Shown piece after piece: positions 20,276 to 41,217 of a stretch of 64,000 nucleotides of DNA (within the stretch, counting starts at the first letter, position 1; the number at the start of each line of letters is the position of its first letter). The notes below the pieces were generated by a model. It was not told where the DNA came from and searched no databases. It saw only the letters and a program-made list of their open reading frames with translations. The stretch is from Bacteroidales bacterium (GTDB lineage Bacteria; Bacteroidota; Bacteroidia; Bacteroidales; UBA12077), in assembly GCA_028282585.1 (NCBI GenBank), contig JANQHR010000052.1, forward strand, positions 24,363-88,362, read 5' to 3'. Both the position numbers and the translations under genes were made by a program.

Positions 20276-20629
20276 ATGGAATCAAAAAAATTAGTCGACT
20301 TAACATACCTATACGAAATAAGCGATGGAAGTGATAATTTAATTAATGACTTATTTGAAATGTTTTTTAAACAAATTCCGGAATATCAAGATTTACTTAT
20401 CGGTTTTTATGAGAAAAGGGATTTCTACAACTTAGGTAGAATAGCGCACAAAGCAAAATCTGCAATCCTAATGCTAGGACTAAAAGACCTTGCTAATGAG
20501 CTAAAAAAATTAGAAGAAAATGCAAAAGAGGGGAAAAATTTTAATGAATATCAGGAAATAATTGCTAAATTTGTAAGAGATAGTAATATTGCACTAGAAG
20601 AACTAAAGGAAATAAAGAATAATAAATAA
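20276..20629 (+). CDS. Hpt (histidine phosphotransfer) domain protein
   Basis: The HKAKSAILMLGL motif holds the phosphorylatable His in a four-helix Hpt context. Confidence 0.6.
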   Translation: MESKKLVDLTYLYEISDGSDNLINDLFEMFFKQIPEYQDLLIGFYEKRDFYNLGRIAHKAKSAILMLGLKDLANELKKLEENAKEGKNFNEYQEIIAKFVRDSNIALEELKEIKNNK

Positions 20630-20655
20630 ATATATTAACTTTAAAACCGGAATAT

Positions 20656-20994
20656 ATGTTAATACACGAATCGAACAACGGAATTGAGATATTAAAGTTT
20701 GATAATGTAAGTAAATTAAATATCTTAATTGCTCAGTCTTTAAAAGAAGAGGTTGCTCAATATTTAACAAAGGCAAATACAAAACTTGTTCTTGACCTAG
20801 CGGGTATTGAATATGTTGACAGTTCTGGTTTTGGCGCTTTGTTATCCATTTTAAGAAATGCAAAAAATAACGATAGTCAGTTTAAAATTTGCAGTATTTC
20901 TCCCGACGTTATGGAATTAGTTAAATTACTTCAATTGCATAATGTATTTGATATTTGTGATAATGTGGAAAAGTGCATGAAATCATTTGAATAA
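20656..20994 (+). CDS. STAS-domain anti-sigma-factor antagonist
   Basis: DLAGIEYVDSSGFGALL is the SpoIIAA-type DSSG phospho-serine motif. Length is 112 aa. Confidence 0.8.
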   Translation: MLIHESNNGIEILKFDNVSKLNILIAQSLKEEVAQYLTKANTKLVLDLAGIEYVDSSGFGALLSILRNAKNNDSQFKICSISPDVMELVKLLQLHNVFDICDNVEKCMKSFE

Positions 20995-22551: not shown

Positions 22552-24906
22552 ATGAGACAAAAGATATTTTTATTTGTTTCTTTATTCATTATTCATACAA
22601 TTTCTGTGTATACTCAGGAAAATATGAATCAAACACTTCGAGGTATTGTTGTTGATCAAGAAACCCAAATACCTCTCTCAGGAGTCAATATTGTATTAAC
22701 TGAATCAGATCCACAACAGGGAACAATAAGTAATGAAAACGGTTATTTCCGTTTTGAAAATGTTAATATTGGAAGACACACTATACAGGCTAGTTACATT
22801 GGCTACAAAACTCAAATTATAGATAACCTAACAGTTAGTTCTGCAAAAGAAAAAATTGTTAAAATTGAATTGGAAGAATCTGTAACGAAACTTGATGAGG
22901 TAGTTATAAAAGCTTCGATACAAAAAGACAAGCCAATGAATAAAATGGCCATTACTAGCGCCCGCTCTTTTACAATTGATGAAACGAACCGATATCCGGG
23001 CAGTTACGGTGATCCAGCTAGAATGGCCGCTAATTATGCAGGAGTAATGTCTGTGCGTGATAACAGAAATGATATCATTATTCGTGGAAATTCGTCCACA
23101 GGTTTGTTATGGAGGTTAGATGGAGTTGAAATTCCTAATCCAAACCATTTTGCAGCTTCAGGTACAACCGGCGGACCAATTACAATTCTGAATAATAACC
23201 TATTAACCAATTCCGATTTTATGACCGGGGCATTTCCTGCCGAATATGGAAACGCACTGGCCGGTGTTTTCGATTTAAAAATGCGAAACGGCAATAATGA
23301 AAAACGGGAACATTGGATGGAATTTGGTTATAATGGTTTGGAATTTGGAACTGAAGGACCTATTTCGAAAAAATCAAACTCTTCTTATTTAATTACCTAT
23401 AGATACTCTTTAGTTGATATTATTGATCTTTTAGGTGCCGAAGTTGAAACAACCAAATACCAGGATTTAACATTTAAGTTGAACTTTCCAATGAAAAAAG
23501 GTCGTTTGAGCTTTATTGGAATGGGAGGAACCAGCTATATTGAAATGTTTGATTCAAACGATGCGCAAGAAGACTGGTCATTTGAAAGTTGGGGAGAAGA
23601 TTTAAGTAATGGATCAAATATAGGGTCTCTTGCACTTTCTTATGTTCATTTTTTTGGAACAAAAACAAGATTGCAAAACGCTTTATCTTTGTATGGATCT
23701 GAAGTTACAACTCAAATTGATACTTTTTATAATGATCCAAACTTGATTGGAAACTGGGCAGGTGAGGAATCTTCCGAAGTAAAGGCAAGTTTTACATCGA
23801 GCCTAAATACCAAAATTAACAACAAAAATACTTTTAATTCTGGTATAAAATTCGACCGATACTTTGTTAATTTTGCAGATAGTAGCATTGATAATGGATT
23901 GTTTATTGTTAATACCGAAGTTAAAAATGAACAATTTAATCTATATCAGGCTTATGCTCAATTCAAACACAAATTTACAAATTACATTGATTTATATGCC
24001 GGTGTTAACTTTCAGTACCTGGATTTAAACAATTCATATTCGATTGAGCCAAGGCTTGGTTTCAATTGGGTAATTAATCCCCGAAACTCCTTTAAATTGG
24101 GTTATGGTTTACATAGCCAAACACAACTAAGGGTAATTTATTTCACCCAAACCCAATTACCTGATGGTTCTTATACTTATTCGAACAAAAACCTTGATTT
24201 TACGAAAAGCCATCAATTTGTAATGGGTTATGACCATTCCTTCAGTGATAATCTAAGGCTTAAACTTGAAACATATTTGCAATATTTGTATGATGTGCCA
24301 GTAAAAGAAAGCCAGCCGGAATACTCAGTTTTAAACTTTGGGGCAGAATATTTTATTGAACGTGTAGATAGTTTAGTCAATGAGGGAACAGGAAAGAATT
24401 ATGGAATAGAGTTAACCTTAGAGCGATTTCTAAATAATAATTTTTACTTTTTAATTACAGGATCACTATATGAATCAACTTACAAAGGTTATGATGGTGT
24501 AAGAAGAAATACAGCATTTAATGGTAACTTTGCCATCAATGTTTTAGGAGGCTATGAAATTCCGTTAAAAAGATATAATGCGTTTATAATTGGATTAAGA
24601 ACAACTTATGCAGGCGGAAGGCCGTATGTTCCATATGATGTGCAAGAAACTGTTGTTCAAAAGAAAGAAGTTCTTGATTGGGATAATGCATATGAAATTC
24701 AACAAGATGATTACTTCAGAATTAATTTACGATTAGGTATTAAGCGAAATAAGCCAAAATTTAATGTTGAAATATCAATGGATTTGCAGTACAGGACAAA
24801 CTATACAAGTGTTTATGAACATCGAATTGATCCATTGACAGGTGAAGTATACCATAACTATGAAATGGCATTATACCCCATGGCGAATTATAGAATTCAA
24901 TTTTAA
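22552..24906 (+). CDS. TonB-dependent receptor with CarboxypepD_reg-like N-domain
   Basis: Signal peptide, then LRGIVVDQETQIPLSGVNIVL (CarboxypepD_reg) and a plug-like region. The long beta-barrel ends in a terminal aromatic residue (YRIQF). Confidence 0.8.
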   Translation: MRQKIFLFVSLFIIHTISVYTQENMNQTLRGIVVDQETQIPLSGVNIVLTESDPQQGTISNENGYFRFENVNIGRHTIQASYIGYKTQIIDNLTVSSAKEKIVKIELEESVTKLDEVVIKASIQKDKPMNKMAITSARSFTIDETNRYPGSYGDPARMAANYAGVMSVRDNRNDIIIRGNSSTGLLWRLDGVEIPNPNHFAASGTTGGPITILNNNLLTNSDFMTGAFPAEYGNALAGVFDLKMRNGNNEKREHWMEFGYNGLEFGTEGPISKKSNSSYLITYRYSLVDIIDLLGAEVETTKYQDLTFKLNFPMKKGRLSFIGMGGTSYIEMFDSNDAQEDWSFESWGEDLSNGSNIGSLALSYVHFFGTKTRLQNALSLYGSEVTTQIDTFYNDPNLIGNWAGEESSEVKASFTSSLNTKINNKNTFNSGIKFDRYFVNFADSSIDNGLFIVNTEVKNEQFNLYQAYAQFKHKFTNYIDLYAGVNFQYLDLNNSYSIEPRLGFNWVINPRNSFKLGYGLHSQTQLRVIYFTQTQLPDGSYTYSNKNLDFTKSHQFVMGYDHSFSDNLRLKLETYLQYLYDVPVKESQPEYSVLNFGAEYFIERVDSLVNEGTGKNYGIELTLERFLNNNFYFLITGSLYESTYKGYDGVRRNTAFNGNFAINVLGGYEIPLKRYNAFIIGLRTTYAGGRPYVPYDVQETVVQKKEVLDWDNAYEIQQDDYFRINLRLGIKRNKPKFNVEISMDLQYRTNYTSVYEHRIDPLTGEVYHNYEMALYPMANYRIQF

Positions 24907-24954
24907 CAAAAAAAGGATTGTTTTGTTATCTTCGCAGGTATCCAAACATAGATA

Positions 24955-26295
24955 ATGAAAATACTTTTAATAAATACTCCCCGGTCACCACATAATAAGA
25001 TACTGGAATCTGCTCCGACAGAAGCAAAAAAGTTTATTCATAAAAAATTAATAGGGCCACCTCTTGGATTGATGACTGTTGCTGAAGCTGTTAAGGACTA
25101 CGATGTTGTGTTTTTTGAAACCAAGGGGGAGTATGATTTATACCCGGATACAACTCCTCTGCTTGACCAACTAGTTTTAGATTTGCTAAATAAACATAAA
25201 CCGGATATGGTTGGAACAACCACCATTGCTTCGGAATTTTATTATGCTATTGATATCTTTAAAACCGTTAAAACTTTTGATCCTGAAATTTTAACAGTTG
25301 CCGGGGGATTACATACAAGTTTATCACCAAATGATTTTACAGATCCTTGCGTTGATTTAATACTCCCAGGACAATCGGCTCATATTTTTAGAGAAGTTGT
25401 TGAAGCAAAGGAAAAAAACGAAGGTTTTGAAAATATACCAGGAATCATCATAAATAAGAACGGGAAGTTGCATAAAACTAAAACCAGAACACATCATTTC
25501 AATTCAGCAAAAAATGATTTTTTAATGCCAGACAGAAAATTAGTTGAACCATGGAGGAATAGCTATTTTGTGGGCAATGCCCCCCACCCTTCCACCTATT
25601 TATTTACCTCACTGGGATGCCCTTATAAATGTACATTTTGTTCTATATGGTGCCAGTATCAAGGTAAATATTTACAACGTGATGTAGAAAGTATTATTGC
25701 TGAATTAAAAGAAATCGACTATGAAATAGTTCGATTTGCAGATGCAAATACGATCGTTGATGAAAATTTGATTGATCATCTTTTCGACCGCATTGAACAA
25801 GAAGGAATTAAGAAAACATACATTATGGATATCAGAACTGATACAGCAGTAAATAATCCTAAACTTATTGAAAAACTGGCTAAAAATGGGTTAAAAGTTG
25901 TAATCTGTGGGTTTGAATCATTCCGTGAGGAAGAATTGAAAAAATACAATAAAAGTTCTGAGGCTAAACTTATACACCAGGCCATAGATATCTTTCATCA
26001 AAACGATATTATGTTGCGGGGGAACTATGTTATTCCAAACGATTATAACGAATCGGATTTTGAAGCTTTATCTGAATATACCAACTCCCACAGAGTTACC
26101 TACGCAGGTTACACAATACTTACCCCTATGCCTGGAACTCCTTTCTACAATGAAATTAAAGGCCAGATAATTGATTTCGACCTTTCAAAATACAATTTTT
26201 TTAATAGTGTATTAAAAACTAAACTGCCTTTAGAAAAATTTTATGAAAATGTGGGTAAACTTTGGTTAATCAAAAAAGGGACTGACGTAATTTAG
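24955..26295 (+). CDS. B12-binding-domain radical SAM protein
   Basis: CPYKCTFCSIW (CxxxCxxC) preceded by a Rossmann-like B12-binding N-domain. Confidence 0.8.
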   Translation: MKILLINTPRSPHNKILESAPTEAKKFIHKKLIGPPLGLMTVAEAVKDYDVVFFETKGEYDLYPDTTPLLDQLVLDLLNKHKPDMVGTTTIASEFYYAIDIFKTVKTFDPEILTVAGGLHTSLSPNDFTDPCVDLILPGQSAHIFREVVEAKEKNEGFENIPGIIINKNGKLHKTKTRTHHFNSAKNDFLMPDRKLVEPWRNSYFVGNAPHPSTYLFTSLGCPYKCTFCSIWCQYQGKYLQRDVESIIAELKEIDYEIVRFADANTIVDENLIDHLFDRIEQEGIKKTYIMDIRTDTAVNNPKLIEKLAKNGLKVVICGFESFREEELKKYNKSSEAKLIHQAIDIFHQNDIMLRGNYVIPNDYNESDFEALSEYTNSHRVTYAGYTILTPMPGTPFYNEIKGQIIDFDLSKYNFFNSVLKTKLPLEKFYENVGKLWLIKKGTDVI

Positions 26296-26421
26296 AAAAC
26301 CTATTGATAGGTAAATTGAAGTCATTATTAACTCTTTATTAGATCAATTTCATTAAAATTTAATCTATAATCTTTATTTTTTTAGTAAATTAGCTAATCA
26401 CTAAAAATCTGGAGGTTTATT

Positions 26422-26799
26422 ATGAAACAAAAATTCACAATTACAGGAATTATAACGATTTTTACTATTTTACTTTTCTCTACGGGTGCCTTTGCAAACA
26501 AAACTTCAGTTACCATTGTTGCTCCTGAAAAAGCGGAAAAAGGTAGTGAAATTACTGTAAAAATAGAAGTTAAACACATGGGTAACACTAAAGGGCATCA
26601 CACTGATTGGGTATGGTTAAAAGTTAATGGTGAAGAAGTTAAAAGATGGGAGTATTCAAAAGCCGACTTGCCTGAAAGCCAAAATTTTACTTTAGAATAC
26701 AAAGTTAAAGCAGATTCAAATCTTGAAATTATAGCAGAAGGAAACTGTAACAAACACGGTTCTAAAGGCACTGACAAAGTTACTGTTAAAGTTGATTAA
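26422..26799 (+). CDS. secreted desulfoferrodoxin/SOR-like domain protein
   Basis: Signal peptide (..FSTGAFA). HMGNTKGHH and CNKHG resemble the His/His and Cys-x2-His iron ligands of neelaredoxin-type SOR. The first His ligand was not found. Confidence 0.45.
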   Translation: MKQKFTITGIITIFTILLFSTGAFANKTSVTIVAPEKAEKGSEITVKIEVKHMGNTKGHHTDWVWLKVNGEEVKRWEYSKADLPESQNFTLEYKVKADSNLEIIAEGNCNKHGSKGTDKVTVKVD

Positions 26800-26810
26800 A
26801 ATAACAAACC

Positions 26811-26993
26811 ATGTTTGGGATTGATATTATTCTATGGCTTGGAGTAATAAATTTATTCCTTGTGTTATTCCAGTTGTTAAGTGGATTAAGAGTATTGAAA
26901 GTAAAATATAAAACCCATAAAAGAATGGGAATTTTACTTTTCTTTACTGCTTTTATTCATGGGATTTATGCTATTGTAAGTTACTATATTTAA
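26811..26993 (+). CDS. small two-helix membrane protein
   Basis: 60 aa with two hydrophobic helices, each near a His (KTHKR, FIHG). It starts 11 nt after the SOR-like gene. Confidence 0.35.
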   Translation: MFGIDIILWLGVINLFLVLFQLLSGLRVLKVKYKTHKRMGILLFFTAFIHGIYAIVSYYI

Positions 26994-27022
26994 TTTATAA
27001 CCAACTATTTAAATATTAAATT

Positions 27023-27634
27023 ATGAAAATTTTAAAAACTGTTTTTGTTGCTCTTATTATTTTTGGGGCAATTACTGTTCAAGCACAAAAAATTAAAGTT
27101 ACGCAGGGAAGTTTAGACTTTTTAAAAGGGCAAACTGCAGTATTACTTGAGTACGACTATAGCAATATGGCTGTTGGTAAATTTGATAAGGAAGAAGATT
27201 ATATTGCTAAAAAAGTAGCTGAATATAATGAAAAAGAAGCCGGAAAAGGAGACATTTGGAAACAAAGTTGGTTTAGTGACCGGGAAGAAAGGTTTCATCC
27301 TATGTTTGAGAAACTTTTAACTGAATATACTAAGGGTACCGGATGTAAATTTTCTCAAAATTCTACGGCTGATTATAAGTTAATTTTGCGAACAACTTTT
27401 ACCGAACCTGGTTGGAACATTGGAGTTTCCAGAAGAGATGCTATGATTAATGTTGAAATTCAGTTTGTAGAAACTGCAAATCCGGAAAGCGTTTTAGCTG
27501 TAATGACTATGGATAAAATCCCTGGTCGTGGTGCAATGGGTAATGATTATGATACTGGTTACAGAATTTCTGAAGCATATGCTAAATGCGGAAAATCGTT
27601 AGGTGATTACCTAAGCAAAAAAGTTTTTAAATAG
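27023..27634 (+). CDS. hypothetical secreted protein
   Basis: Signal peptide (VFVALIIFGAITVQA). No motif recognised. Confidence 0.45.
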   Translation: MKILKTVFVALIIFGAITVQAQKIKVTQGSLDFLKGQTAVLLEYDYSNMAVGKFDKEEDYIAKKVAEYNEKEAGKGDIWKQSWFSDREERFHPMFEKLLTEYTKGTGCKFSQNSTADYKLILRTTFTEPGWNIGVSRRDAMINVEIQFVETANPESVLAVMTMDKIPGRGAMGNDYDTGYRISEAYAKCGKSLGDYLSKKVFK

Positions 27635-27655: not shown

Positions 27656-27686
27656 GTAAGGAATCTTAATAAGATTCCTTACTTTT
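27656..27686. terminator. bidirectional rho-independent terminator
   Basis: A 12-bp perfect stem, gtaaggaatctt-aat-aagattccttac, then TTTT. It lies between convergent genes and marks the left edge of the cluster. Confidence 0.75.
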
Positions 27687-28578
27687 ATATTTTATACGCT
27701 GATCTTAACTTGTAATCTCCCTTTATAAACCTGGAAATTTTCTTCAAGTCTTTTCCTGCACCACATTCATACATATCATTTACACCTAATTCAACTAATT
27801 TCTGCATGGTTTTATGCCAGCTTATCTTTTCAGTTAAATTAAAAACCAGCTCTTGTTTAATATCTTCTGCGGAAAATATTAAACGTTGATTATAAGTTGA
27901 AACTATAGGAACTTGTGGGTCATCAAATTCCAGTTTATTTAAAACGGTTTTAAAAGGAATAGCAAACCTTGAAAGGTATTTGGAATGGTAAGGTGTATCT
28001 ACTGTCAATTCTGCTGCTGTTAAGGCACCTTCCTCCTTTGACTTTTCCAATAAGATATTGATTTCCTTTTTCAAACCTGCAACAACCAAAGAATGCTCAT
28101 TATTAACATTGATAATTTCAACTGATAAAGAGCTGGTTTGTATTAGTTCCTGCACATCTAAATAAGGCAAGCCAATAATAGCTCCCATTCCATATAATCC
28201 TGTTTTTGTTAGCTCATATAATAAATGATAGGCATCAAAAATTAATTTAGCTCCGGTTTCAAATTTTATGGATTTTGAAGAATAAAGAGATGCGTAAACA
28301 CCCATGCTATATCCGGCCACAAAATCAGGAATAATACTTTTTTGCTTTAATACATCATAGTAAGTACAACTAAATGTATAAGCTAATAATTGAGAAGTTA
28401 ATTCTTCTCGAAACAAATCATTTTTATAAGTAAAATCAGGAAAGTCAATATTGATAGTTTCCGAAATTATTTTTAAGTATTTCGTAGGGTTTAAACCATT
28501 ATTTCTTAGAAAATCAATTTCTTTTCCTGTAAACTCCGTTATAAAAGCTGGAAAAATAAATGCCGTTTTGTTTTCCAT
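27685..28578 (-). CDS. FabD-like ACP S-malonyl/acyl-transferase
   Basis: Nucleophile elbow GYSMGVYASL (GxSxG), FPAF/G-rich N-terminus, 297 aa. Confidence 0.75.
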   Translation of the reverse strand: MENKTAFIFPAFITEFTGKEIDFLRNNGLNPTKYLKIISETINIDFPDFTYKNDLFREELTSQLLAYTFSCTYYDVLKQKSIIPDFVAGYSMGVYASLYSSKSIKFETGAKLIFDAYHLLYELTKTGLYGMGAIIGLPYLDVQELIQTSSLSVEIINVNNEHSLVVAGLKKEINILLEKSKEEGALTAAELTVDTPYHSKYLSRFAIPFKTVLNKLEFDDPQVPIVSTYNQRLIFSAEDIKQELVFNLTEKISWHKTMQKLVELGVNDMYECGAGKDLKKISRFIKGDYKLRSAYKI

Positions 28579-28581
28579 CTT

Positions 28582-28953
28582 TTACGTTTTTACTAAAACT
28601 ACCTTAAAAACTGCGTATACATCATTTGATTGTAAACTTGCAACTATTTTGTTAATTCCAAATTCAGACAAAATATTTTTAACAAGTTCAGATTTAATAA
28701 TCTTGAAATTTCTTTTATCAGTGAATATAACCTCTATATCCTTATAATCAACATCATTACTACTTAAAGCTTTATAAAAAGCTTCTTTAAAACAAAAGCC
28801 TTTTAAAAAGGCCTCCTTTCCGAAATATGAATAATTTTCAATTTCTTTTGCAGTAAAGATATCATATAATAAATCTGATAACTTTCCTTTTTCAAAGTAG
28901 TGCTTACTAAAACGATCTACTTCCTCTATATCAATACCACAACCGTGAATCAT
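28582..28953 (-). CDS. AcpS-type 4'-phosphopantetheinyl transferase
   Basis: MIHGCGIDIEEVDRF start motif and the later FCFKEAFYKA. Length is 123 aa. Confidence 0.75.
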   Translation of the reverse strand: MIHGCGIDIEEVDRFSKHYFEKGKLSDLLYDIFTAKEIENYSYFGKEAFLKGFCFKEAFYKALSSNDVDYKDIEVIFTDKRNFKIIKSELVKNILSEFGINKIVASLQSNDVYAVFKVVLVKT

Positions 28954-28967
28954 CAGAACAGTGTACT

Positions 28968-29270
28968 CTAAAGATCTAAGATATTGTTTTCGTGTTCAAT
29001 AATAAGCATTTGCATATCTATTAACTCGCCGATAGTTTTTACAGGGTTTTTCACTGCATATTTACCAATAGTCTTCAATTCGATATTTAAGCTATATTTC
29101 TTTTTAAATATTTCTATTAACTCAAGAAACATCAATGAATCTCCATCCAAGTCGCCAATAATATTCGATTTCTCTGATATCTCACTTACCTCAACTTCAC
29201 ATTCCTCAGCAAAAAATTCCAACACGATCTCTTTTACTTCACTCCTGGTACTTTCTGTAATTTGGGCCAT
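28968..29270 (-). CDS. acyl carrier protein
   Basis: GDLDGDSLMFLELIE contains the DSL phosphopantetheine serine motif. Length is 100 aa. Confidence 0.7.
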   Translation of the reverse strand: MAQITESTRSEVKEIVLEFFAEECEVEVSEISEKSNIIGDLDGDSLMFLELIEIFKKKYSLNIELKTIGKYAVKNPVKTIGELIDMQMLIIEHENNILDL

Positions 29271-29278
29271 ATATATTG

Positions 29279-29677
29279 TTATTCTGTTATTAACTTATTA
29301 ACTTCTTCTTTTGTAAGTTCTTGCCATTGTGGATTATCAAATTTTCCTTCGGTTATATCAAAACGTACCCTGAAAAAAGATTCGTGGTTAAAAGATAATT
29401 TGGTCTTTTTATCGGGTGTATGTTCGATATAAATTAATTGGTTGTAATTAACCTCATATTTATCGCAAATCTGCTTTGCCAATTTTGTATTCCACTCTGT
29501 AATTGATGTTCCCGGGTTTTCTTCAAATAAATCCGTTGCAATTACAATGGTTTGGTTTGTTTTTTTTACGATTTTTAGCCCACAAATTGAAGGCACATCC
29601 CACAATCCTTTAAAATGATAAATTTGGTCTTGATAATTATCTACTTTAGGTTTCATTTTAAAACAATTATTAAGCAA
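29279..29677 (-). CDS. hypothetical protein
   Basis: 132-aa ORF overlapping the upstream rSAM gene by 8 nt, consistent with translational coupling. No motif recognised. Confidence 0.4.
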   Translation of the reverse strand: MLNNCFKMKPKVDNYQDQIYHFKGLWDVPSICGLKIVKKTNQTIVIATDLFEENPGTSITEWNTKLAKQICDKYEVNYNQLIYIEHTPDKKTKLSFNHESFFRVRFDITEGKFDNPQWQELTKEEVNKLITE

Positions 29678-30944
29678 TTTTATGTTTTACATTCTTACCA
29701 AAACTGGTTTTAGACAAATCTTGCCTTCTCTTTCTAAATGTACCATCTTCTACCTCTCTTGAAACCACTTTCTTAAGTAATTTAAACATTTTCTCTTCTT
29801 GAGTTTCATCTTTGTAGAAGGTATCCCACGCATATTGGTATAACTCCTGTAACCTTTCGGCACTCATATGCTTAGGATGGTATACCACCTGCCCGGCATT
29901 GTAATCGTTCCAGTTTTTGTTGAAAATACGGTTCTGCTTTACAAGGTCATTATATGCCTTTGTATGAGGGAATGGTGCTAAAACAGTAAACTCCGCTAAA
30001 TCTAAATCAATCTCTAACAAGAAATCAATTAATCGTTTAATATCATCTTCTGTTTGGTTATCAAGCCCTAACAAAATAGTTCCCTCCACTCCGATTCCAT
30101 AATCATGATATTGCTTCACCCGGTTTTTTATATAATCGGATGTATCAAATACAGCTTGGTAAACATACCATGCACCAGCCTGGGCAGCTAAATCTAACAC
30201 CTCTGGTTTATCTTCGATGGTATGACTACACCATTTTTTCTTCAACGGAATCATAGCTTTAAATAAGTCTTTTTCCCACTGCGTATCTTGCGCAAGTGAA
30301 TTATCTACGATAAATAACCTATTGTTATCTATTGTTTCTAATTCTTCTATTGCTTTATCAATTGGCCTGGGCCTAAATTGTCGTCCACCTAAATATGAAA
30401 CTGCACAAGGATAGCAGCTATACTTACAACCACGAGATGCGTGGAATAAATCTACCATTTGAACGCCTTTATGATAGTATAGGTCTCTGTTATATAATTC
30501 ACGTCTTGCCGGCCCTACGATTTCAATTGGAGGTAAATCATTCATATGGTTATATACCTTTTTCAACTCACCATTCTTAAAATCTTTAAAAACTTGATCC
30601 ATATGCCCTTCGGCCTCGCCTAAGAAAACGGAGTCGGCGTGTTCCATGGTTTCTTCTGCGTGCAACATAGAAGCAATGCCTCCAAAAATAACTTTTTTGC
30701 CGCGTTTTCTATACTCATCGGCTATTGCCCACCCACGTTTTATTTGAGTAGTTAACAACATAGAAATACCAACGAAGTCAACATCATCATCAAAACGCAT
30801 TTCTTCTAAATTCTCGTCAATAAATTCTACCTCAAAATCCTCTGGTATAGTTGCTGCAAAAACAATTGCCCCATGAGGCGGCAAGTTAAAAGTTGTTTGC
30901 CCCTCAAGCTTTCTCCATTTTGGAAATACTAATTGAAATTTCAT
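29670..30944 (-). CDS. B12-binding-domain radical SAM protein
   Basis: B12 domain (FVGISMLLTT ... VIFGGIASM) followed by RGCKYSCYPCAV (CxxxCxxC). Confidence 0.8.
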   Translation of the reverse strand: MKFQLVFPKWRKLEGQTTFNLPPHGAIVFAATIPEDFEVEFIDENLEEMRFDDDVDFVGISMLLTTQIKRGWAIADEYRKRGKKVIFGGIASMLHAEETMEHADSVFLGEAEGHMDQVFKDFKNGELKKVYNHMNDLPPIEIVGPARRELYNRDLYYHKGVQMVDLFHASRGCKYSCYPCAVSYLGGRQFRPRPIDKAIEELETIDNNRLFIVDNSLAQDTQWEKDLFKAMIPLKKKWCSHTIEDKPEVLDLAAQAGAWYVYQAVFDTSDYIKNRVKQYHDYGIGVEGTILLGLDNQTEDDIKRLIDFLLEIDLDLAEFTVLAPFPHTKAYNDLVKQNRIFNKNWNDYNAGQVVYHPKHMSAERLQELYQYAWDTFYKDETQEEKMFKLLKKVVSREVEDGTFRKRRQDLSKTSFGKNVKHKIA

Positions 30945-30999
30945 ATGCTATTTTTGGTTTTCTGCTTGTTTTATCGGATAAAAGTATCAAAAAAATATA

Positions 31000-32088
31000 C
31001 TATTCCAAACTATAATTTTTCTGCTCCATCCACCCCTTTAGGATATTGTTGATTTCCAGCCTATCTGCTTCCGGAATTGTGTATTTATTTTTTTGGTAAT
31101 TCATTACCGAAATAAGGAATTCTTTTATTTGTTTCTCAAATTGTTCAGAAAATTCAACATTAAAGTGTTTATATAATTGCTTTAATTCCTTTAAAGGATC
31201 CTTTTCCAAATCCTCGAACTTTAATTCATAATACCTATCATTTGGTAAAACTTTAGAATCATCCTCTAATTTGTTTACCATCAAATTAAGCACCTCGCTT
31301 ACATCTTTAGTTGTTGGTTTTACCCACTTGTTATTCATAGCATTTTGCGTGCCAACAATATCCCACATTCGCACAGTTGATGGCACAACTTTATAAGGAT
31401 GCCTTATAATATGGATATACCGGGCTTTTGGAAAAATTTCATTTAAAACTTCTAACCTTAACGAATGAAAAGGATTTTTGATTAATATGGTTTTATTATT
31501 GCCAAGTGTTAACTTTTTATAAAAATAGATAAGTGCCTCTTTCCATTCTTTTAATTTTTCACCATACGGTAAAAATCCAGGAAAATCATTTAAAAAATAT
31601 GTTTTCTTTTTAGGAAAAATAACTCTTTCCAATGGAGAATAACCGGAAATCCTAAATAAGGCATACTCATCCTCAAGGGGCTCATCCATGCTTAACTTAA
31701 CCTGGTCCATAGGCCTTGTTCCTTTTAAAGCTCTTCCCATAATAGGTTCATAAGATTTTCTGGATGTTAAAAAGCTATCAGGAATTGACCCCTGAAAAAC
31801 ATTGGATGTAACCAAGTTTGAGTCAAGAGCTAAAAGTTGGTGTAAAAAAGTACTTCCTGTTCGCCAATGGCCTACTATAATAATTGGGTCTTCAGCTAAT
31901 ATGTGTGTCTCTATTTTATCTTTATAGATTGATATTTCTTTTCGGTGAAAAATAGAAGCCCAAATACCATTCTGAAAAAGAAATAAAAATCTTACCAAAT
32001 ACTTTGGACGTATAGCTATTCCATTTTTCAGAAGTAATTTTATGAACCTGGAGAGCCTCATCCCCGCTATCAGGTAAGCACTTTTCAT
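31000..32088 (-). CDS. PAPS-dependent sulfotransferase family protein
   Basis: 5'-phosphosulfate loop VGHWRTGSTFLHQLL and 3'-phosphate motif IIRHPYKVVPS. Confidence 0.75.
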   Translation of the reverse strand: MKSAYLIAGMRLSRFIKLLLKNGIAIRPKYLVRFLFLFQNGIWASIFHRKEISIYKDKIETHILAEDPIIIVGHWRTGSTFLHQLLALDSNLVTSNVFQGSIPDSFLTSRKSYEPIMGRALKGTRPMDQVKLSMDEPLEDEYALFRISGYSPLERVIFPKKKTYFLNDFPGFLPYGEKLKEWKEALIYFYKKLTLGNNKTILIKNPFHSLRLEVLNEIFPKARYIHIIRHPYKVVPSTVRMWDIVGTQNAMNNKWVKPTTKDVSEVLNLMVNKLEDDSKVLPNDRYYELKFEDLEKDPLKELKQLYKHFNVEFSEQFEKQIKEFLISVMNYQKNKYTIPEADRLEINNILKGWMEQKNYSLE

Positions 32089-32127
32089 CTGCTAATTTGG
32101 TTCGGAATTTAAATTCAAGAATTTCAA

Positions 32128-32403
32128 TTATTCTGATTTACTTTTAATAAAATCTGCAATAGAATTTACATTCTTCAAAACTTCGCGAGCAAGGTTTTGG
32201 TCATCAATGCGTACCTTAAAATCGCGTTGCACTGCCATAACAAGCTCTATTGCATCAATTGAGTCTAATCCTAAAGTATTTTCTCCTCCGAAAAGTGGTA
32301 AATCATCCTCAATGTCCTCTGGCGTAACGTCTTGCATATTTAAAGTCTCAACGATCATTTTTTTAATATCCGCCTTCAAATCAGTACCAATATTTTCTCC
32401 CAT
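32128..32403 (-). CDS. acyl carrier protein
   Basis: LGLDSIDAIELV motif. Length is 91 aa. Confidence 0.8.
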   Translation of the reverse strand: MGENIGTDLKADIKKMIVETLNMQDVTPEDIEDDLPLFGGENTLGLDSIDAIELVMAVQRDFKVRIDDQNLAREVLKNVNSIADFIKSKSE

Positions 32404-32415
32404 TCTTATCTTTTA

Positions 32416-33429
32416 TTAAATATTATTTACTACTAATTTAAGTTCTTTATAAAACGCTTCTTCAGCATCTGCTCTTTCATTAATCATCTGGCCAAGTTCT
32501 TGAAGTTTTTCAGGGCCTAAGTCCCTATTCTTTCCTATCTTGGCTGCAAAGTAAGAAATATTTCTCCAACCATCTCCAATTTCCATCATCTTTTTTGACA
32601 TATCCTCTAATCCTTTACTTTGAAGTATTTCGGAAGCTTGCCTGAGGAAAGTTGCATATAAAAATCTAAATCCACCTCCACCGGTTCCTTGGTCCTCAAG
32701 AAATACATTAATTTTCATTATTTCATGCGAAAGATGGTCAATATCTCTGGTTAATTTAGGCCAGCCTTGCAATTTTTTTGCAAAAGTTCTAATACCCCGT
32801 ACTCCGATAAACGGTGGTTGTATCCCGATCATATTATTAATGGTATTCTTTAATGCAATCGGAATTAGCTTATAGTAATCAACGCTTTCCGGAACAGACT
32901 CAATGTAATATCTAAATCCTTTTGGTGCTAAATAACCACCTGCAAATCTTGCTTTTCTGAGATTATCTTTATGAATTTTTGCTAATTTAGGAAAGTAACT
33001 ATCACTAACTAAATATTCATCATCTTCTTTTCCTACAATTGTTATAAAATGTATATTAGCATGAACCCTTTCCCATTGTGGAATATAATCCATATAGTAA
33101 AAATCAACCTGGCATGCCACTGGAATATTCTTTGAAATCAGTTGATCTAACTCTTGTTCTGCCTCATCCTGACTTTTGAAACGCTTTATATTGAATTTAA
33201 TATCAGTTCGTTTTGCAATCTTTTTTCTAAGCTTACCTGGTTTTGTTCTTAAAATAAACATCGGAAAATTTAAGTTGGGAGTATGGTTTAAATATCCAAA
33301 ATACAATCCGCTTCCAAGTCCAAACATCATTGGTTCTGTAACTTCCAGACCTTTATGTTTTAATAATGCTGTTAAGGTACCGGACTCGCAATGAGCCGCC
33401 ATATTGTGGTTAAAAGAATCTATAATCAT
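32416..33429 (-). CDS. BtrH N-terminal-domain (papain-like Cys-His-Asp) protein
   Basis: N-terminal AAHCESGTLTALLKHKGL, NIHFITIVG ... YLVSDS, and a C-terminal helical domain (GTGGGGFRFLYATFL). It is a 337-aa paralog of 41762-42775. Confidence 0.65.
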   Translation of the reverse strand: MIIDSFNHNMAAHCESGTLTALLKHKGLEVTEPMMFGLGSGLYFGYLNHTPNLNFPMFILRTKPGKLRKKIAKRTDIKFNIKRFKSQDEAEQELDQLISKNIPVACQVDFYYMDYIPQWERVHANIHFITIVGKEDDEYLVSDSYFPKLAKIHKDNLRKARFAGGYLAPKGFRYYIESVPESVDYYKLIPIALKNTINNMIGIQPPFIGVRGIRTFAKKLQGWPKLTRDIDHLSHEIMKINVFLEDQGTGGGGFRFLYATFLRQASEILQSKGLEDMSKKMMEIGDGWRNISYFAAKIGKNRDLGPEKLQELGQMINERADAEEAFYKELKLVVNNI

Positions 33430-33926
33430 TTTTTATTTAATTCAATTTTTGTAATTACAACAAATGGATTTTCTGTTCTGGTTTGTTTTAAAACAATAGG
33501 TTGCTTTGATTGATCCGTTCCAACTTTATTCTCATTACCTTCAATTACGATTGTTTGCAGTAAATTAGAAACAGGAATATCAAATGCATAAGCATACTTT
33601 TTCAAATCAGATAATTTAGCTTTTTTAAAACCATCCACTTTTTGATGTTGTTTCACCTTTCTAACCGAAACCTTTGTCCTCCTTGATAATTCTACATCAC
33701 TAAAATCATGAATAGTTTTATAAAAATATATTGGTGTTATTTCATTTTTCTTTAACTTTTCAAGCAATGAGTTTCTAAGCTTTACTGTTTTTTCCCAGAA
33801 ATCGTCAAGATAATTCTTGGATATATAAGAACCAGTTTGGATTGGTCCATATGAGCCATCTTCTTTTTCAACATACATAATCAACTGTTGTGGCTCAAAA
33901 TCAATATAAGCATCTTTTTCTTTCAT
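33426..33926 (-). CDS. XRE-like helix-turn-helix protein (putative cluster regulator)
   Basis: DVELSRRTKVSVRKVKQHQK ... LSDLKKYAYAFDIPVSNL fits the HTH_XRE pattern. It is a paralog of 41218-41619 and overlaps the BtrH-like gene by 4 nt. Confidence 0.5.
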   Translation of the reverse strand: MKEKDAYIDFEPQQLIMYVEKEDGSYGPIQTGSYISKNYLDDFWEKTVKLRNSLLEKLKKNEITPIYFYKTIHDFSDVELSRRTKVSVRKVKQHQKVDGFKKAKLSDLKKYAYAFDIPVSNLLQTIVIEGNENKVGTDQSKQPIVLKQTRTENPFVVITKIELNKK

Positions 33927-33983
33927 TATAGTTTGTTTTGAAGGAAATTAGGCACACTAAAATAGTTCAAATAAAGCAATCGC

Positions 33984-33991
33984 CAAAATTA
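33984..33991 (-). promoter_or_regulatory. candidate -7 promoter box (TAATTTTG) for the minus arm
   Basis: Minus-strand taattttg fits TAnnTTTG and ends 57 nt upstream of the ATG at 33926. Confidence 0.3.
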
Positions 33992-34049
33992 AATAAATTA
34001 AACAAATTATAAATTTGATTGTTAATGAAAATATATGGGCCTTTCAAAA

Positions 34050-34082
34050 AATTGTGCAAAGTTTTCAACTTTTTACACAATT
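34050..34082. promoter_or_regulatory. near-perfect palindrome in divergent promoter region (candidate operator)
   Basis: aattgtgcaaagtt-ttc-aactttttacacaatt. The outer AATTGTG/CACAATT and inner aaagtt/aacttt arms pair with a 2-nt bulge. Confidence 0.4.
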
Positions 34083-34164
34083 AAATTTCATGTAATTTTT
34101 AGACTATTTGATAAAAATATTCGCTAAAACAAATGGTATTCTAAGGAATATTAAAACTATTTAT

Positions 34165-34172
34165 TAAATTTG
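34165..34172 (+). promoter_or_regulatory. candidate -7 promoter box (TAAATTTG) for the plus arm
   Basis: Fits TAnnTTTG and ends 71 nt upstream of the ATG at 34244. Confidence 0.3.
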
Positions 34173-34243
34173 CATTCTTATAAAAACGGCATAAGAACTA
34201 ATAGGTTTATTTAAACCACTTTAACGCAAACCAAAGGATAGAA

Positions 34244-35785
34244 ATGATTATTATAGGGGGTAAAAATCTTAATCTTGCTGATTTTTACAAAATTCTTTTC
34301 GAAGGGGAAAAGATAGATTTGGATGAAGCATCTTTAGATAAAGTACAAAAGAATTTTGAATTTCTTGACGAATTTTCTAAAAATAAAGTCATTTACGGTA
34401 TAAACACTTGTTTTGGGCCAATGGCACAATACAAGATTAGCGACGAGGACCAAAAAGCATTACAATATAACCTTATTCGCAGCCATGCTGCAGGCTCAGG
34501 AGACCCGATTCCTGATATTTACGTAAAAGCTCTGATGATTGCCAGGTTAAATACTTTTATGCGTGGTTATTCTGGAGTTCACAAAGAGGTTGTTTTACTT
34601 TTAAAAGAATTTATTAATAAAAATATTTACCCAAAAATATTTGAGCACGGTGGCGTTGGAGCTAGTGGCGATTTAGTTCAACTTTCTCATTTAGCTTTAA
34701 ACTTAATAGGTGAAGGAGAAATTCGCTTTAAAGGAAAGTTCTACCCGGCAAATGAAGTATTTAAAAAAACCGGTTTAACTCCATTAAAAGTTCATTTAAG
34801 AGAAGGTTTAGCATTAATAAATGGTACTTCCTGCATGGCTGGAATTGGAATAATCAACCTGATTCATGCAAATAACCTTCTAAATTGGGCTGTTGTATCC
34901 TCAAGCATAACAAATGAGGTTGTAGAATCTTATGACGACCATTTTTCAAAAGAACTAAATGAAGTTAAATTGCATGAAGGGCAAAACCTGATTGCAGCAG
35001 AAATGCGTAAAATTGTTGAAACAAGTAAGTTAATAAAAAAACGTGCCGAACACCTGTATGATAATCATGTTGACGTTGGGGTTATAAAAGATAAAGTGCA
35101 GGAGTATTACTCTTTAAGGTGCGTGCCTCAGGTTTTAGGGCCAATTTATGAAACACTAAAAAATGTAGAAAAGGTTTTAATTAAAGAAGTTAATTCTGTA
35201 AACGACAACCCAATAATCGATAATACAAACGTAGATGTACTGCATGGTGGCAATTTCCATGGAGATTATGTTTCCCTCGAAATGGATAAACTGAAAATTG
35301 TTACAACAAAAATGTCTATGTTAATTGAGAGGCAATTAAACTACCTGTTTAATCACAAGTTAAATGAGAAGTTTCCTCCGTTTGCTAACCTTGGAGTATT
35401 AGGTTTAAACCTTGGCATGCAAGCTGCTCAATTTACGGCAACTTCAACAACTGCAGAAAATCAAACCTTGTCAAACCCAATGTATGTTCATAGTATTCCA
35501 AACAATGGAGATAACCAGGATATTGTAAGTATGGGTACTAATGCTGCATTAATGGCTAAAAGAATCGTTGAAAATACTTTTGAGGTTTTAGCTATTAAGT
35601 GCATGAGCTTATTGCAAGTTGTTGACTACATGAACTTTAAAGATAAACTTTCTAGCACATCAAAAGGTTTATATGAGGATTTAAGAAAGATGGTTCCAAC
35701 AATTGTCGAAGACGAACCTCTTTACCCATATATTGAAAGTATTAAACAATATTTAATTAATAACAGGCCAAACCGCATAAATTAA
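34244..35785 (+). CDS. aromatic amino-acid ammonia-lyase (HAL/TAL family, flexirubin TAL-like)
   Basis: MIO-forming triad in GGVGASGDLVQLSH. YGINTCFGPMA, NDNPIID, HGGNFHG and SIPNNGDNQDIVSMG are also present. Length is 513 aa. Confidence 0.88.
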   Translation: MIIIGGKNLNLADFYKILFEGEKIDLDEASLDKVQKNFEFLDEFSKNKVIYGINTCFGPMAQYKISDEDQKALQYNLIRSHAAGSGDPIPDIYVKALMIARLNTFMRGYSGVHKEVVLLLKEFINKNIYPKIFEHGGVGASGDLVQLSHLALNLIGEGEIRFKGKFYPANEVFKKTGLTPLKVHLREGLALINGTSCMAGIGIINLIHANNLLNWAVVSSSITNEVVESYDDHFSKELNEVKLHEGQNLIAAEMRKIVETSKLIKKRAEHLYDNHVDVGVIKDKVQEYYSLRCVPQVLGPIYETLKNVEKVLIKEVNSVNDNPIIDNTNVDVLHGGNFHGDYVSLEMDKLKIVTTKMSMLIERQLNYLFNHKLNEKFPPFANLGVLGLNLGMQAAQFTATSTTAENQTLSNPMYVHSIPNNGDNQDIVSMGTNAALMAKRIVENTFEVLAIKCMSLLQVVDYMNFKDKLSSTSKGLYEDLRKMVPTIVEDEPLYPYIESIKQYLINNRPNRIN

Positions 35786-38069: not shown

Positions 38070-38966
38070 ATGCCATCATGGAAAGGACAATCTCGTGGAA
38101 ATGTACTTGGATACAAAATCTTTGTACAAACCCTTAAACACCTCGGCTTAACTTTTGCCTACTCAATACTTGTATTTGTTGCTTTTTATTACTTTTTGTT
38201 TTCTCGTAAAAGTTCAATTCATACGTACCATTACTTTCGCCATGTCCTTAAATATCCTTGGCTAAAATCAAAATGGAGTATTTACAAAAACTATTTTGTA
38301 TTTGGGCAGGTCCTTTTAGACAAAGTAGCTATTTTGGGCGGGTTAAAAGGAAAGTTCTCTTACAATTTTGATGGTGAGCACTATTTACGTGAAATGGCTG
38401 AGAATAAAACCGGTGGTATTATTGTAAATGCACATATCGGTAATTTCGAAATTGCCGGGCAACTTTTGGAAAGGCTTGAAACTAAAATTAATGTTTTAAT
38501 GTTGGATGCTGAACACCAGAAGATTAAAAATTACTTATCAGATGTTTTAGTCAATAAAAATGTAGGAATCATACCCATTCAAAATGATAACTCGCATATA
38601 ATTCCAATCAGCGAAGCATTAATTAATAAGGAACTTATTGCTATGGCAGGCGACCGGTACATTGAAGAAAGCAAATTACACACGGTTGATTTTATGGGTA
38701 AAAAAGCAAAGTTTCCAACAGGCCCTTTTTATTTGGCGGCCAGATTTGGTGTCCCAATTACGTTTGCTTTTGCAATGAAGGAAAGAAATACTCATTACCA
38801 CTTTTTTGCTTCAAAGCCAGAATTTGTAAAAAGATATAGGGATCCTAAAGAGCAAGAAAAGGAATTGCATAAATTCATTGAGAAGTATTCCAAAGAGTTT
38901 GAACGAATTTTAAGAATGTACCCAATGCAGTGGTTTAATTACTACCAGTTTTGGGAGAAAAAGTAA
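38070..38966 (+). CDS. LpxL/HtrB-family lipid acyltransferase
   Basis: N-terminal TM helix. The NAHIGNFEIAG motif (H-x4-E) is typical of lauroyl/myristoyl acyltransferases. Confidence 0.7.
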   Translation: MPSWKGQSRGNVLGYKIFVQTLKHLGLTFAYSILVFVAFYYFLFSRKSSIHTYHYFRHVLKYPWLKSKWSIYKNYFVFGQVLLDKVAILGGLKGKFSYNFDGEHYLREMAENKTGGIIVNAHIGNFEIAGQLLERLETKINVLMLDAEHQKIKNYLSDVLVNKNVGIIPIQNDNSHIIPISEALINKELIAMAGDRYIEESKLHTVDFMGKKAKFPTGPFYLAARFGVPITFAFAMKERNTHYHFFASKPEFVKRYRDPKEQEKELHKFIEKYSKEFERILRMYPMQWFNYYQFWEKK

Positions 38967-38968
38967 TT

Positions 38969-41204: not shown

Positions 41205-41217
41205 GAAACTAAAAACC

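Follow-up and report, generated by a model that had tools for sequence, protein, structure and literature searches.

A sulfotransferase- and radical SAM-containing gene arm beside a flexirubin-type locus in uncultured Bacteroidales

In a 64,000-nucleotide stretch of DNA from a Bacteroidales bacterium (GenBank assembly GCA_028282585.1, contig JANQHR010000052.1, positions 24,363 to 88,362 of the forward strand; the whole stretch is called the window below), nine minus-strand genes at 27685–33926, which we call the arm, diverge from a flexirubin-type pigment locus. They encode relatives of the pigment-cluster proteins DarG and DarH (marked DarG' and DarH'), two acyl carrier proteins (ACP1 and ACP2), a sulfotransferase, a radical S-adenosylmethionine (SAM) enzyme (rSAM424), a protein without an assigned function (u125), an AcpS-type phosphopantetheinyl transferase (PPTase) and an acyltransferase (AT)-like protein. 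The arm is an uncharacterised and widespread add-on to flexirubin-type clusters, and this combination of genes is undescribed. In our preferred reading, to which we assign a probability of about 0.5, the arm would serve a flexirubin-type pathway without DarA and DarB as an accessory branch for tailoring and transfer, and its product would be a sulfated, radical SAM-modified aryl-polyene lipid.

Flexirubin and aryl-polyene clusters rank with the most widespread biosynthetic loci of bacteria. Several of their conserved genes, those for DarG and DarH included, have no demonstrated role, and the joining of polyene and lipid is unresolved. Our literature searches found no paper that links flexirubin with a sulfotransferase or with radical SAM, nothing on the domain DUF4872, and nothing relevant that joins aryl polyene with sulfotransferase and ACP or with BtrH and ACP.

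The operon and its DarG/DarH/ACP head

The listing of open reading frames (ORFs) in the window contains nine same-direction ORFs at 27685–33926, all on the minus strand, in exact agreement with the original prediction, and the motifs that had been quoted from them (LGLDSID, HWRTGSTFLHQLL, RHPYKVVPS, CKYSCYPC, GDSL and GYSMG) are all present in the translations. Domains were assigned with the profile hidden Markov models of Pfam and NCBIfam, judged against their curated cut-offs; the earlier domain assignments were upheld, those of B12-binding and Radical_SAM at or just under the cut-offs. The features of the arm and its borders are as follows.

33927–34243: divergent intergenic region, 317 bp, between DarG' and flxA
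33426–33926, minus strand: DarG', 166-aa DarG-family paralogue with an XRE-type helix-turn-helix (HTH) core and a C-terminal beta extension
32416–33429, minus strand: DarH', 337 aa, BtrH_N and DUF4872, type-2 paralogue of the flexirubin DarH acyltransferase
32128–32403, minus strand: ACP1, 91-aa carrier protein, paralogue of the pigment polyketide synthase (PKS) ACP
31000–32088, minus strand: sulfotransferase, 362 aa, 3'-phosphoadenosine 5'-phosphosulfate (PAPS)-type O-sulfotransferase, Stf-like Sulfotransfer_3
29670–30944, minus strand: rSAM424, B12-binding-like radical SAM enzyme
29279–29656, minus strand: u125, 125 aa, function unassigned, always following rSAM424
28968–29270, minus strand: ACP2, second carrier protein, 100 aa
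28582–28953, minus strand: AcpS, AcpS-type 4'-phosphopantetheinyl transferase, 123 aa
27685–28578, minus strand: AT-like, FabD-fold acyltransferase-like protein without the malonyl-recognition residues
27651–27687: hairpin with a 17-bp stem between the convergent u203 and AT-like genes, from a scan for terminator-like structures

The intergenic distances from DarG' to the AT-like gene are, in order, -4, 12, 39, 55, 13, 8, 14 and 3 nt, computed with the corrected start of u125 (see below), and the hairpin is a probable bidirectional terminator closing the operon. These spacers of -4 to 55 nt and the terminal hairpin indicate that the nine genes form one predicted operon. Its G+C content (0.31–0.34) is the same as that of the remainder of the window. 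In the divergent intergenic region, a single Bacteroidetes-type TAnnTTTG motif was found for each direction (33984–33991, minus strand; 34165–34172, plus strand). The promoter assignments there are weak, because this motif is not enriched in the window (83 found, 110 expected). A sigma-70 promoter scan, the model of which is ill-suited to Bacteroidota, gave fewer matches than the shuffled expectation, and an Rfam scan of the whole window returned no riboswitches or other RNA families.

For DarG', the scores stayed below the cut-offs of both NCBIfam models of the DarG family (NF053536 / NF053545), DarG_fam (42.8 bits, cut-off 70) and flexirubin_DarG (47.2 bits, cut-off 170). In a BLASTP comparison, the protein shares 31% identity (E 1e-12) with the canonical DarG encoded at 41203–41619, and we treated it as a diverged DarG paralogue because of this homology and because its gene occupies the same place upstream of a DarH gene. 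In the AlphaFold2 model, the helical core has a predicted local distance difference test (pLDDT) score above 90. Foldseek matched this core to the HTH domains of C.BclI, SinR, ClgR and HipB with a probability of 1.0 and target TM-scores of 0.6–0.78, and it superimposes on XRE HTH domains with a root-mean-square deviation of ~2 Å over ~60 residues, the whole-protein E value being only ~0.02. The modelled core has the XRE-type five-helix HTH fold. The gene had originally been called an XRE-like HTH; the fold stands, and the description was incomplete in that the protein is also a DarG paralogue.

For DarH', the NCBIfam model DarH_acyl (NF053550) was matched over residues 6–331 with 320.7 bits (cut-off 300), as were the Pfam domains BtrH_N (E 7.6e-41) and DUF4872 (E 6.3e-45). 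The protein is 38% identical over its full length (E 2e-81) to the canonical DarH encoded at 41762–42775, which scores 461.6 bits with the same model, and it belongs to a distinct type-2 subgroup. Among 73 sequences of this type, H13-C14-E15, H123/H127, S142-D143 and an EDQGTGGxGFR loop are invariant, so that a Cys-His-Asp set (C14, H123/H127 and D143) is conserved. An acyl-ACP-dependent acyltransferase activity of DarH' is plausible.

For ACP1, the Pfam PP-binding domain (E 1.3e-8) and NF006617 (54.5 bits) were matched, and D47-S48 is invariant in 74 sequences. In sequence it is 38% identical (E 2e-22) to the ACP of the pigment PKS encoded at 48914–49168, one of four ACPs that the window encodes in total. 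In the loci that have the sulfotransferase, the ACP1 gene always lies between DarH' and it. By these comparisons, the head of the arm is a diverged second DarG/DarH/ACP set beside the canonical copy. The arm had been described as a self-contained pathway, and this description is at odds with a head that duplicates the routine flexirubin DarG/DarH pair and a pigment-type ACP. Seen as a routine part of flexirubin loci, the arm divides in two: the DarG/DarH pair is routine, and the full combination is undescribed.

The same proteins have been weighed under another reading, in which DarG' would be a transcriptional regulator only and DarH' a thioesterase- or peptidase-like release or editing enzyme, the arm being a regulatory or proofreading unit with two tailoring enzymes. 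The XRE HTH fold of DarG' agrees with such a role, as do the few DarG' homologues that match Pfam HTH models or carry regulator names. DarH' matches BtrH_N strongly, a domain of the papain-like cysteine-peptidase clan, and the AT-like protein presumably resembles the AT-like acyl hydrolases of trans-AT PKSs. However, the DarG' stop codon overlaps the DarH' start by 4 nt, DarG' is present in every cassette locus and the pair was never separated in the loci inspected, features typical of partners in a complex. In addition, BtrH, to our knowledge the sole characterised relative of DarH', is an acyl-ACP:amine acyltransferase, and the name given to DarH by the NCBI curators is also acyltransferase, although this name is without experimental backing. 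We regard the regulatory and editing reading as unlikely.

Distribution of the cassette and its place in pigment loci

Homologues of the sulfotransferase formed 505 clusters at E <=1e-5, with relatives in 488 species-representative genomes. The best 80 of the 488 are all metagenome-assembled genomes (MAGs) of Bacteroidales type, a few being labelled Chlorobiota or other phyla, and the closest are uncultured Bacteroidales and Marinilabiliales MAGs. Synteny was examined as a tblastn matrix of the cassette proteins against the sulfotransferase loci, which splits the loci into a close and a distant clade. In the close clade (sulfotransferase identity 61–82%, ~30 other genomes), all nine genes are syntenic and DarG' is divergent from flxA. 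The nine-gene set is therefore not a chance assembly. In the distant clade (sulfotransferase identity 42–50%), the order DarG'-DarH'-ACP1-sulfotransferase is kept; rSAM424, u125 and two plus-strand neighbours of the arm, CPDreg784 and u203, are usually added, and ACP2, the AT-like gene and a further radical SAM gene, rSAM446, are found in a subset. The plus-strand genes that travel with the cassette lie beyond the hairpin.

22552–24906, plus strand: CPDreg784, CarboxypepD_reg and a weak Plug domain (Pfam), co-travels with the cassette
24955–26295, plus strand: rSAM446, HpnR-like B12-binding radical SAM protein, co-travels with the cassette
27023–27634, plus strand: u203, secreted/lipoprotein-like, co-travels with the cassette

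Homologues of CPDreg784 in the distant loci are 42–89% identical and usually stand directly after u125, rSAM446 is 58–90% identical and stands next to DarG' in many loci, and u203 homologues adjoin the cassette in distant loci. Because these three genes co-travel with the cassette in distant genomes, the conserved functional unit exceeds 27685–33926, the interval first taken as the full unit, and also takes in the plus-strand genes at 22552–27634. CPDreg784 is, by its domains, probably an outer-membrane protein resembling TonB-dependent receptors. The u203 product, which had no Pfam or NCBIfam match, has a hydrophobic, signal-peptide-like N-terminus as judged by eye.

DarH' and ACP1 were found beside the sulfotransferase in the inspected loci with enough flank. 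The coupling was also counted in the reverse direction by scanning metagenome contigs with a DarH'-type alignment, which gave 54 loci with more than 1.7 kb downstream. The sulfotransferase gene follows ACP1 immediately in 48 of them and is missing from the other 6, which are otherwise identical (for example, L165 compared with L048). Its absence from these loci favours optional tailoring over an activation of the CurM type, discussed below.

The cassette adjoins hallmark genes of flexirubin and aryl-polyene clusters in at least five arrangements. One is a block of tyrosine ammonia-lyase (TAL), FlxB, ketosynthase (KS) and LPLAT genes, directly fused to DarG' in L059. Another, L048, reads C45, rSAM424, u125, CPDreg, O-methyltransferase (OMT), ABC-2, DarG', DarH', ACP1, sulfotransferase, u218, FlxY and u203; loci of this arrangement have C45, OMT, DarJ and FlxY, the last scoring 717 bits (cut-off 520). 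The others are KS399 with the chain-length factor (CLF) CLF354 and O-methyltransferases; GT2-RND-CrtD-C45; and LolA2-LolB2-ApeI. In the distant clade, the sequence retrieved shows no DarG/DarH pair other than the type-2 pair, which stands beside DarI/DarJ and FlxY. The clade of the window is unusual in having both the type-1 (canonical) and the type-2 pair. Because these hallmark genes stand beside the cassette even in distant loci, we conclude that the cassette belongs to the flexirubin-type loci of this whole radiation. This survey bears out the physical linkage of the arm to the pigment locus across many genomes.

Independence of the cassette from the pigment locus had been considered because TAL is not found near the cassette in distant loci, and was dropped because FlxY, FlxW/C45, DarI/J, KS/CLF and LolA2/LolB2 genes adjoin it; interleaved with these genes, the distant cassettes also speak against a self-contained pathway. 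A related reading is that the arm makes an independent sulfated outer-membrane lipid, unrelated to the pigment, and lies near aryl-polyene loci through shared export machinery (LolA2/LolB2, RND, ABC). That no flx gene is universally present within 6–10 kb of the sulfotransferase, that the cassette has its own outer-membrane protein and secreted unknown, and that, among named relatives, lipid sulfotransferases (by JGI name and Stf structures) come closest to the sulfotransferase would all suit it. Conversely, at least one flexirubin or aryl-polyene hallmark gene adjoins the cassette in most of the inspected loci whose flanks suffice, in the arrangements described above, DarG', DarH' and ACP1 are paralogous to pigment-cluster proteins, and the only DarG/DarH pair retrieved for the distant clade adjoins DarI/DarJ and FlxY. 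An independent sulfolipid is, in our judgement, improbable.

Sulfotransferase, radical SAM enzymes and second carrier system

For the sulfotransferase, the Pfam family Sulfotransfer_3 (PF13469) was matched with E 4.4e-31 (109 bits, cut-off 27). The two PAPS motifs, GHWRxGxTxLHQL (5'-phosphosulfate-binding) and RxPxxxxPS (3'-phosphate-binding), do not vary among 13 diverse members, and PAPS binding seems to be preserved, as the original prediction had supposed. A profile of 13 homologues, searched against the PDB, gave 2zq5 (E 7e-14) and 2z6v (E 1e-12) as best matches, presumably the mycobacterial Stf1 and Stf9 structures, and weaker matches (E ~2e-7) to the sulfotransferase domains of CurM (4gbm) and olefin synthase (OLS; 4gox). 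Several homologues are named by JGI after Stf3, the sulfomenaquinone sulfotransferase. The nearest neighbours of the cassette are head-group enzymes (TAL, FlxY and OMT), and in L059 an O-methyltransferase gene overlaps the sulfotransferase start. This 363-aa gene was considered as a tandem sulfotransferase and rejected; it was dissimilar to the sulfotransferase and was matched by the O-methyltransferase query. This overlap and the six loci without the sulfotransferase agree with an optional tailoring enzyme that works next to other enzymes modifying hydroxyls. Separately, the window has a gene of the ComB-like 2-phosphosulfolactate phosphatase family (14217–14945; ~176 bits, under its cut-offs) ~13 kb upstream among housekeeping genes (serC, PGDH, gcvT), and no evidence was found tying it to the sulfotransferase.

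A rival reading, close to the original prediction, takes the arm as a self-contained pathway that makes an ACP-bound block of its own. The sulfotransferase would sulfonate a beta-hydroxyacyl-ACP to give a leaving group, in the manner of CurM and olefin synthase, and DarH', as the hydrolase, would then perform decarboxylative elimination or would transfer the block. As in the sulfotransferase-thioesterase systems of CurM and OLS, the enzyme belongs to this PAPS-dependent superfamily and, when present, is always encoded directly downstream of an ACP. The Cys-His-Asp set of DarH' could hydrolyse a thioester, and a PPTase, an AT-like enzyme and two ACPs are encoded within the arm itself. Unlike its counterparts in CurM and OLS, however, the sulfotransferase is stand-alone, lies outside a PKS module, has no partner thioesterase and is closer to Stf-type enzymes (E 7e-14 vs 2e-7). 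The Pfam and NCBIfam scans of the arm ORFs found no ketosynthase, ketoreductase or alpha/beta-hydrolase thioesterase. The loss in 6 of 54 otherwise identical loci is unexpected for an obligatory activating step, the AT-like enzyme lacks the malonyl-binding residues, which makes self-sufficient chain extension unlikely, and AcpS, the AT-like enzyme and ACP2 are missing from most distant cassettes. On this evidence we hold this reading to be improbable.

For rSAM424, the Pfam scores were 32.0 bits for B12-binding (cut-off 32.1) and 26.4 bits for Radical_SAM (cut-off 29.5), and no NCBIfam model came near its cut-off. The cysteines of its CX3CX2C motif (C173, C177 and C180) are invariant in 59 sequences, and a sequence search of the PDB gave a weak match alone, to AprD4 (E 7e-5). 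The protein is 68–96% identical across loci in which the sulfotransferase is 42–82% identical; rSAM424 and ACP2 are the two most conserved cassette proteins, ACP2 occurring in far fewer loci. rSAM446 matched Radical_SAM (57 bits), B12-binding (38 bits) and HpnR (3e-42). C-alkylation by the radical SAM enzyme is plausible, as had been suggested, and the same holds for acyl transfer by the BtrH-like DarH'.

For u125, the homologues are ~121–128 aa long, most of them exactly 125, and start at an internal Met position in the alignment. The gene is therefore 29279–29656, encodes 125 rather than the 132 residues first given, and does not overlap the rSAM424 gene. The AlphaFold2 model has a pLDDT of 74.9; an MPN/KH-like fold was considered and dropped, the structure matches, with TM-scores of ~0.3 only, being uninformative. 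A profile search placed it in a wider family, with 910 representatives after clustering at 50%; in some members (P0428, P0440, P0478 and P0504), the domain is fused to DUF6166. DUF6166 is its sole fusion partner, from which no function follows.

Several further genes were noted around these enzymes. The window contains three distinct B12-binding-type radical SAM genes, at 24955–26295 (HpnR-like), 29670–30944 (rSAM424) and 38951–40327 (TIGR04072, "lipid biosynthesis"), which suggests unusually heavy radical chemistry on the pigment lipid. Between rSAM446 and u203 lie genes for a 125-aa desulfoferrodoxin-like protein (26422–26799; Pfam E 3e-8) and a 60-aa ferric-reductase-like membrane fragment (26811–26993). 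The former accompanies the cassette in the close clade and a few distant loci, and its product is a possible redox partner. Upstream of the CPDreg784 block, 20276–20994 contains a histidine-kinase-like fragment together with the gene for a STAS anti-sigma-factor antagonist, and a STAS-domain protein is also encoded beside the cassette in L086.

For ACP2, the PP-binding domain was matched with E 1.7e-6 (Pfam), and D44-S45-L46 is invariant in 31 sequences. The protein is 67–90% identical across loci, and its gene is always accompanied by the AT-like gene. AcpS scored 45.4 bits (cut-off 25) with Pfam ACPS (PF01648) and remained under the NCBIfam holo-ACP synthase equivalog cut-offs; in the tblastn matrix, it was found only in the close clade.

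For the AT-like protein, the Pfam family Acyl_transf_1 was matched (35.2 bits, cut-off 32.7), and the score with TIGR00128 fabD was 142.8 bits (cut-off 260.9). In a HMMER alignment with Staphylococcus aureus FabD (3im9), Ala116 stands at the position of Arg117, and FPAFITE replaces FPGQGAQ. Among 30 family members, 26 have Ala and 4 have Val at the Arg117 position, Arg does not occur there, and the Gln11 position is Phe in 30 of 30; FPAF, G-x-S91-x-G and H198 are invariant. Because both malonyl-recognition residues are missing family-wide and the score is 143 against 261 bits, the protein is not an ordinary malonyl loader. It is a FabD-fold enzyme for which malonyl specificity is unlikely, which departs from the original statement that FabD-type enzymes load ACPs, if loading with malonyl is meant.

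In the 159 DarH'-type loci (L001–L168), ACP2 and the AT-like gene occur near the cassette without FlxY in 42 and FlxY occurs without them in 48, and none has both. As the two were never found together, the ACP2/AT subsystem may replace a FlxY-type starter activation, which we offer as a lead and not as a result. In some distant loci (L086, 1–4730, and L003, 1–5070), ACP2/AT adjoins the gene of a weak StlD/DarB-family KSIII (126 bits in L086-type loci, cut-off 450). Beside it are genes for a 4HBT thioesterase, a pair of enoyl-CoA hydratases, a 3-hydroxyacyl-CoA dehydrogenase and two more B12-binding radical SAM proteins (DUF4070); this gene set may be a cyclohexanedione/resorcinol-like or beta-oxidative starter route.

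Proposed pathway, the pigment locus and known systems

The pathway that we infer takes the observed gene content, paralogy, motif conservation and co-occurrence as its basis; its substrates, step order and export route are predicted. DarG', DarH' and ACP1 would be the fixed core, in which DarH' moves or releases an acyl intermediate bound to ACP1. The Stf-like sulfotransferase would, as an optional step, use PAPS to O-sulfate a hydroxyl of the ACP1-bound intermediate or of the finished pigment lipid; the phenolic hydroxyl of the tyrosine-derived head group ranks first as the site, and a lipid or beta-hydroxyl second. rSAM424 with u125, and the nearby rSAM446, would perform radical C-H chemistry, C-methylation being likeliest. 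ACP2, its own AcpS and the Arg-less AT-like enzyme would constitute a second carrier system for a non-malonyl acyl unit; the ACP2/AT system occurs in lineages without a FlxY ligase seen near the cassette. Delivery of the product to the outer membrane would fall to CPDreg784, u203 and LolA2/LolB2.

Several points weigh against this pathway. Every genome inspected is a MAG, and DarG' could be a mere transcription factor. A sequence search of the PDB with DarH' returned no solved relative, and a literature search found no paper on the function of a DarH-type protein. For both domains of rSAM424, the score is at or under the Pfam cut-off. Genomic association gives no answer as to which hydroxyl would receive the sulfate. 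Neither ACP2/AT nor FlxY is present in 69 of the 159 loci, mostly on short contigs, and lineage and flank length (only 6–10 kb) both confound the exclusivity of the two. DarA, DarB and FlxY may be encoded elsewhere in the genome.

A broader picture can be drawn tentatively: that uncultured, largely anaerobic Bacteroidales (Marinilabiliales, Prolixibacteraceae, Lentimicrobiaceae and others) make undescribed sulfated, radical SAM-modified aryl-polyene lipids of the outer membrane, that DarG'/DarH'/ACP1 is the long-sought ACP-to-acceptor step, that the Stf-like enzyme caps a phenol or lipid hydroxyl, and that the Arg-less FabD-fold enzyme with its ACP and PPTase replaces FlxY. As a whole, we consider this picture possible and rather doubtful. 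It predicts sulfated pigment lipids, and no such compounds are reported in the literature searched. If a sulfate does cap the phenol, the pigments would be invisible to the classical KOH test for flexirubin, and many bacteria scored as flexirubin-negative by it may hold cryptic pigment relatives. The AT-like proteins add a FabD-fold enzyme family with a consistent loss of the malonyl-binding residues. Loci with or without the sulfotransferase, FlxY or ACP2/AT, and with one or two DarG/DarH pairs, provide a natural genetic dissection by which these roles are testable.

The adjoining pigment locus has the following features.

34244–62626, plus strand: flexirubin-type locus, divergent from the arm, beginning with flxA
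34244–35785, plus strand: FlxA tyrosine ammonia-lyase (NCBIfam FlxA_rubin_TAL 831 bits, cut-off 700)
plus strand: FlxB reductase (NCBIfam 408 bits, cut-off 340)
38951–40327: TIGR04072 B12-binding radical SAM protein (419 bits, cut-off 360)
41203–42775, plus strand: canonical (type-1) DarG-DarH (DarG_fam 157 bits, cut-off 70; DarH_acyl 461.6 bits, cut-off 300)
plus strand: LolA2 (218 bits, cut-off 125)
plus strand: LolB2 (145 bits, cut-off 60)

DarI/DarJ ABC transporter genes follow the canonical DarG-DarH pair, and the plus-strand locus also has KS/CLF pairs, GT2, an RND-acyltransferase-methyltransferase fusion, CrtD-like and C45 genes. DarA, DarB and KSIII gave no match among the scanned window ORFs of at least 240 aa or in the 4 kb past the right edge, and tblastn of a StlD/DarB-like KSIII against the window gave none either. 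No match to a bona fide FlxY (717 bits) was found by tblastn in the window, and the 4 kb past the right edge are also without FlxY. In the slot after C45/FlxW where Flavobacterium johnsoniae has FlxY, just past the right edge (11719–13380 of L088), there is an amine-oxidase-type gene, the second amine-oxidase/phytoene-desaturase-like gene of the locus (553 aa), and the locus then ends.

Four paralogous genes for "four helix bundle protein" (TIGR02436, 23S rRNA-IVP/bAvd-like) lie amid the flexirubin genes (40783–41166, 45107–45496, 46090–46473 and 55189–55557), and the cassette of L087 is broken by a similar gene; these genes resemble selfish or insertional passengers. An IS200/IS605-type transposase (59 bits, cut-off 55) lies between KS386 and a short, 222-aa KS/CLF-like ORF (47738–48172, 48239–48907), and the CLF partner may have been truncated or displaced by this insertion.

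The published clusters of Chitinophaga pinensis and F. johnsoniae have darG (hypothetical), darH (BtrH_N), darI/J (ABC), darC (ACP), darD (KS) and darE (PMC12968099). The KS/CLF, GT2, RND fusion, CrtD-like and C45 genes of F. johnsoniae UW101 and C. pinensis are in the same relative order as in the window. In contrast to these clusters, the window lacks DarA, DarB and FlxY and has an extra, diverged DarG/DarH pair, and the published gene lists are without the sulfotransferase, rSAM424, u125, ACP2, AcpS and Arg-less AT of the arm; the original remark that this combination was not recognised from described loci agrees with these lists. The dar cluster of Azoarcus sp. BH72 (arcuflavin) comprises darD (conserved hypothetical), darE (BtrH-like peptidase), an ABC transporter and darC (ACP) (PMC3949708). 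Its grouping of a BtrH-like protein and an ACP with a small hypothetical protein, in a dialkylresorcinol/aryl-polyene hybrid system, is like that at the head of the arm; unlike the arm, that cluster has darA/darB, has no sulfotransferase or radical SAM genes and is separate from the polyene cluster.

The butirosin enzyme BtrH, an acyl-ACP:aminoglycoside acyltransferase, has in common with DarH' the BtrH_N domain and a dedicated adjacent ACP, whereas DarH' differs in its C-terminal DUF4872 domain and glycine-rich EDQGTGGxGFR loop, and the arm is without an aminoglycoside context and encodes no partner of the ATP-grasp, decarboxylase or gamma-glutamyl cyclotransferase type. For the AT-like protein, FabD and the trans-AT enzymes DisD and PksC are the best PDB matches and share its fold, GxSxG serine and catalytic His; the Ser92-His201 dyad of FabD is kept, whereas its malonyl-recognition residues Arg117 and Gln11 are not. 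For the sulfotransferase, the mycobacterial Stf enzymes (2zq5, 2z6v; Stf3) are the best relatives of solved structure and are likewise free-standing Sulfotransfer_3 proteins. This similarity lies mostly in the C-terminal half, and the context of the arm (ACP, BtrH-like and radical SAM proteins) is unrelated to that of the mycobacterial sulfolipid and menaquinone loci.

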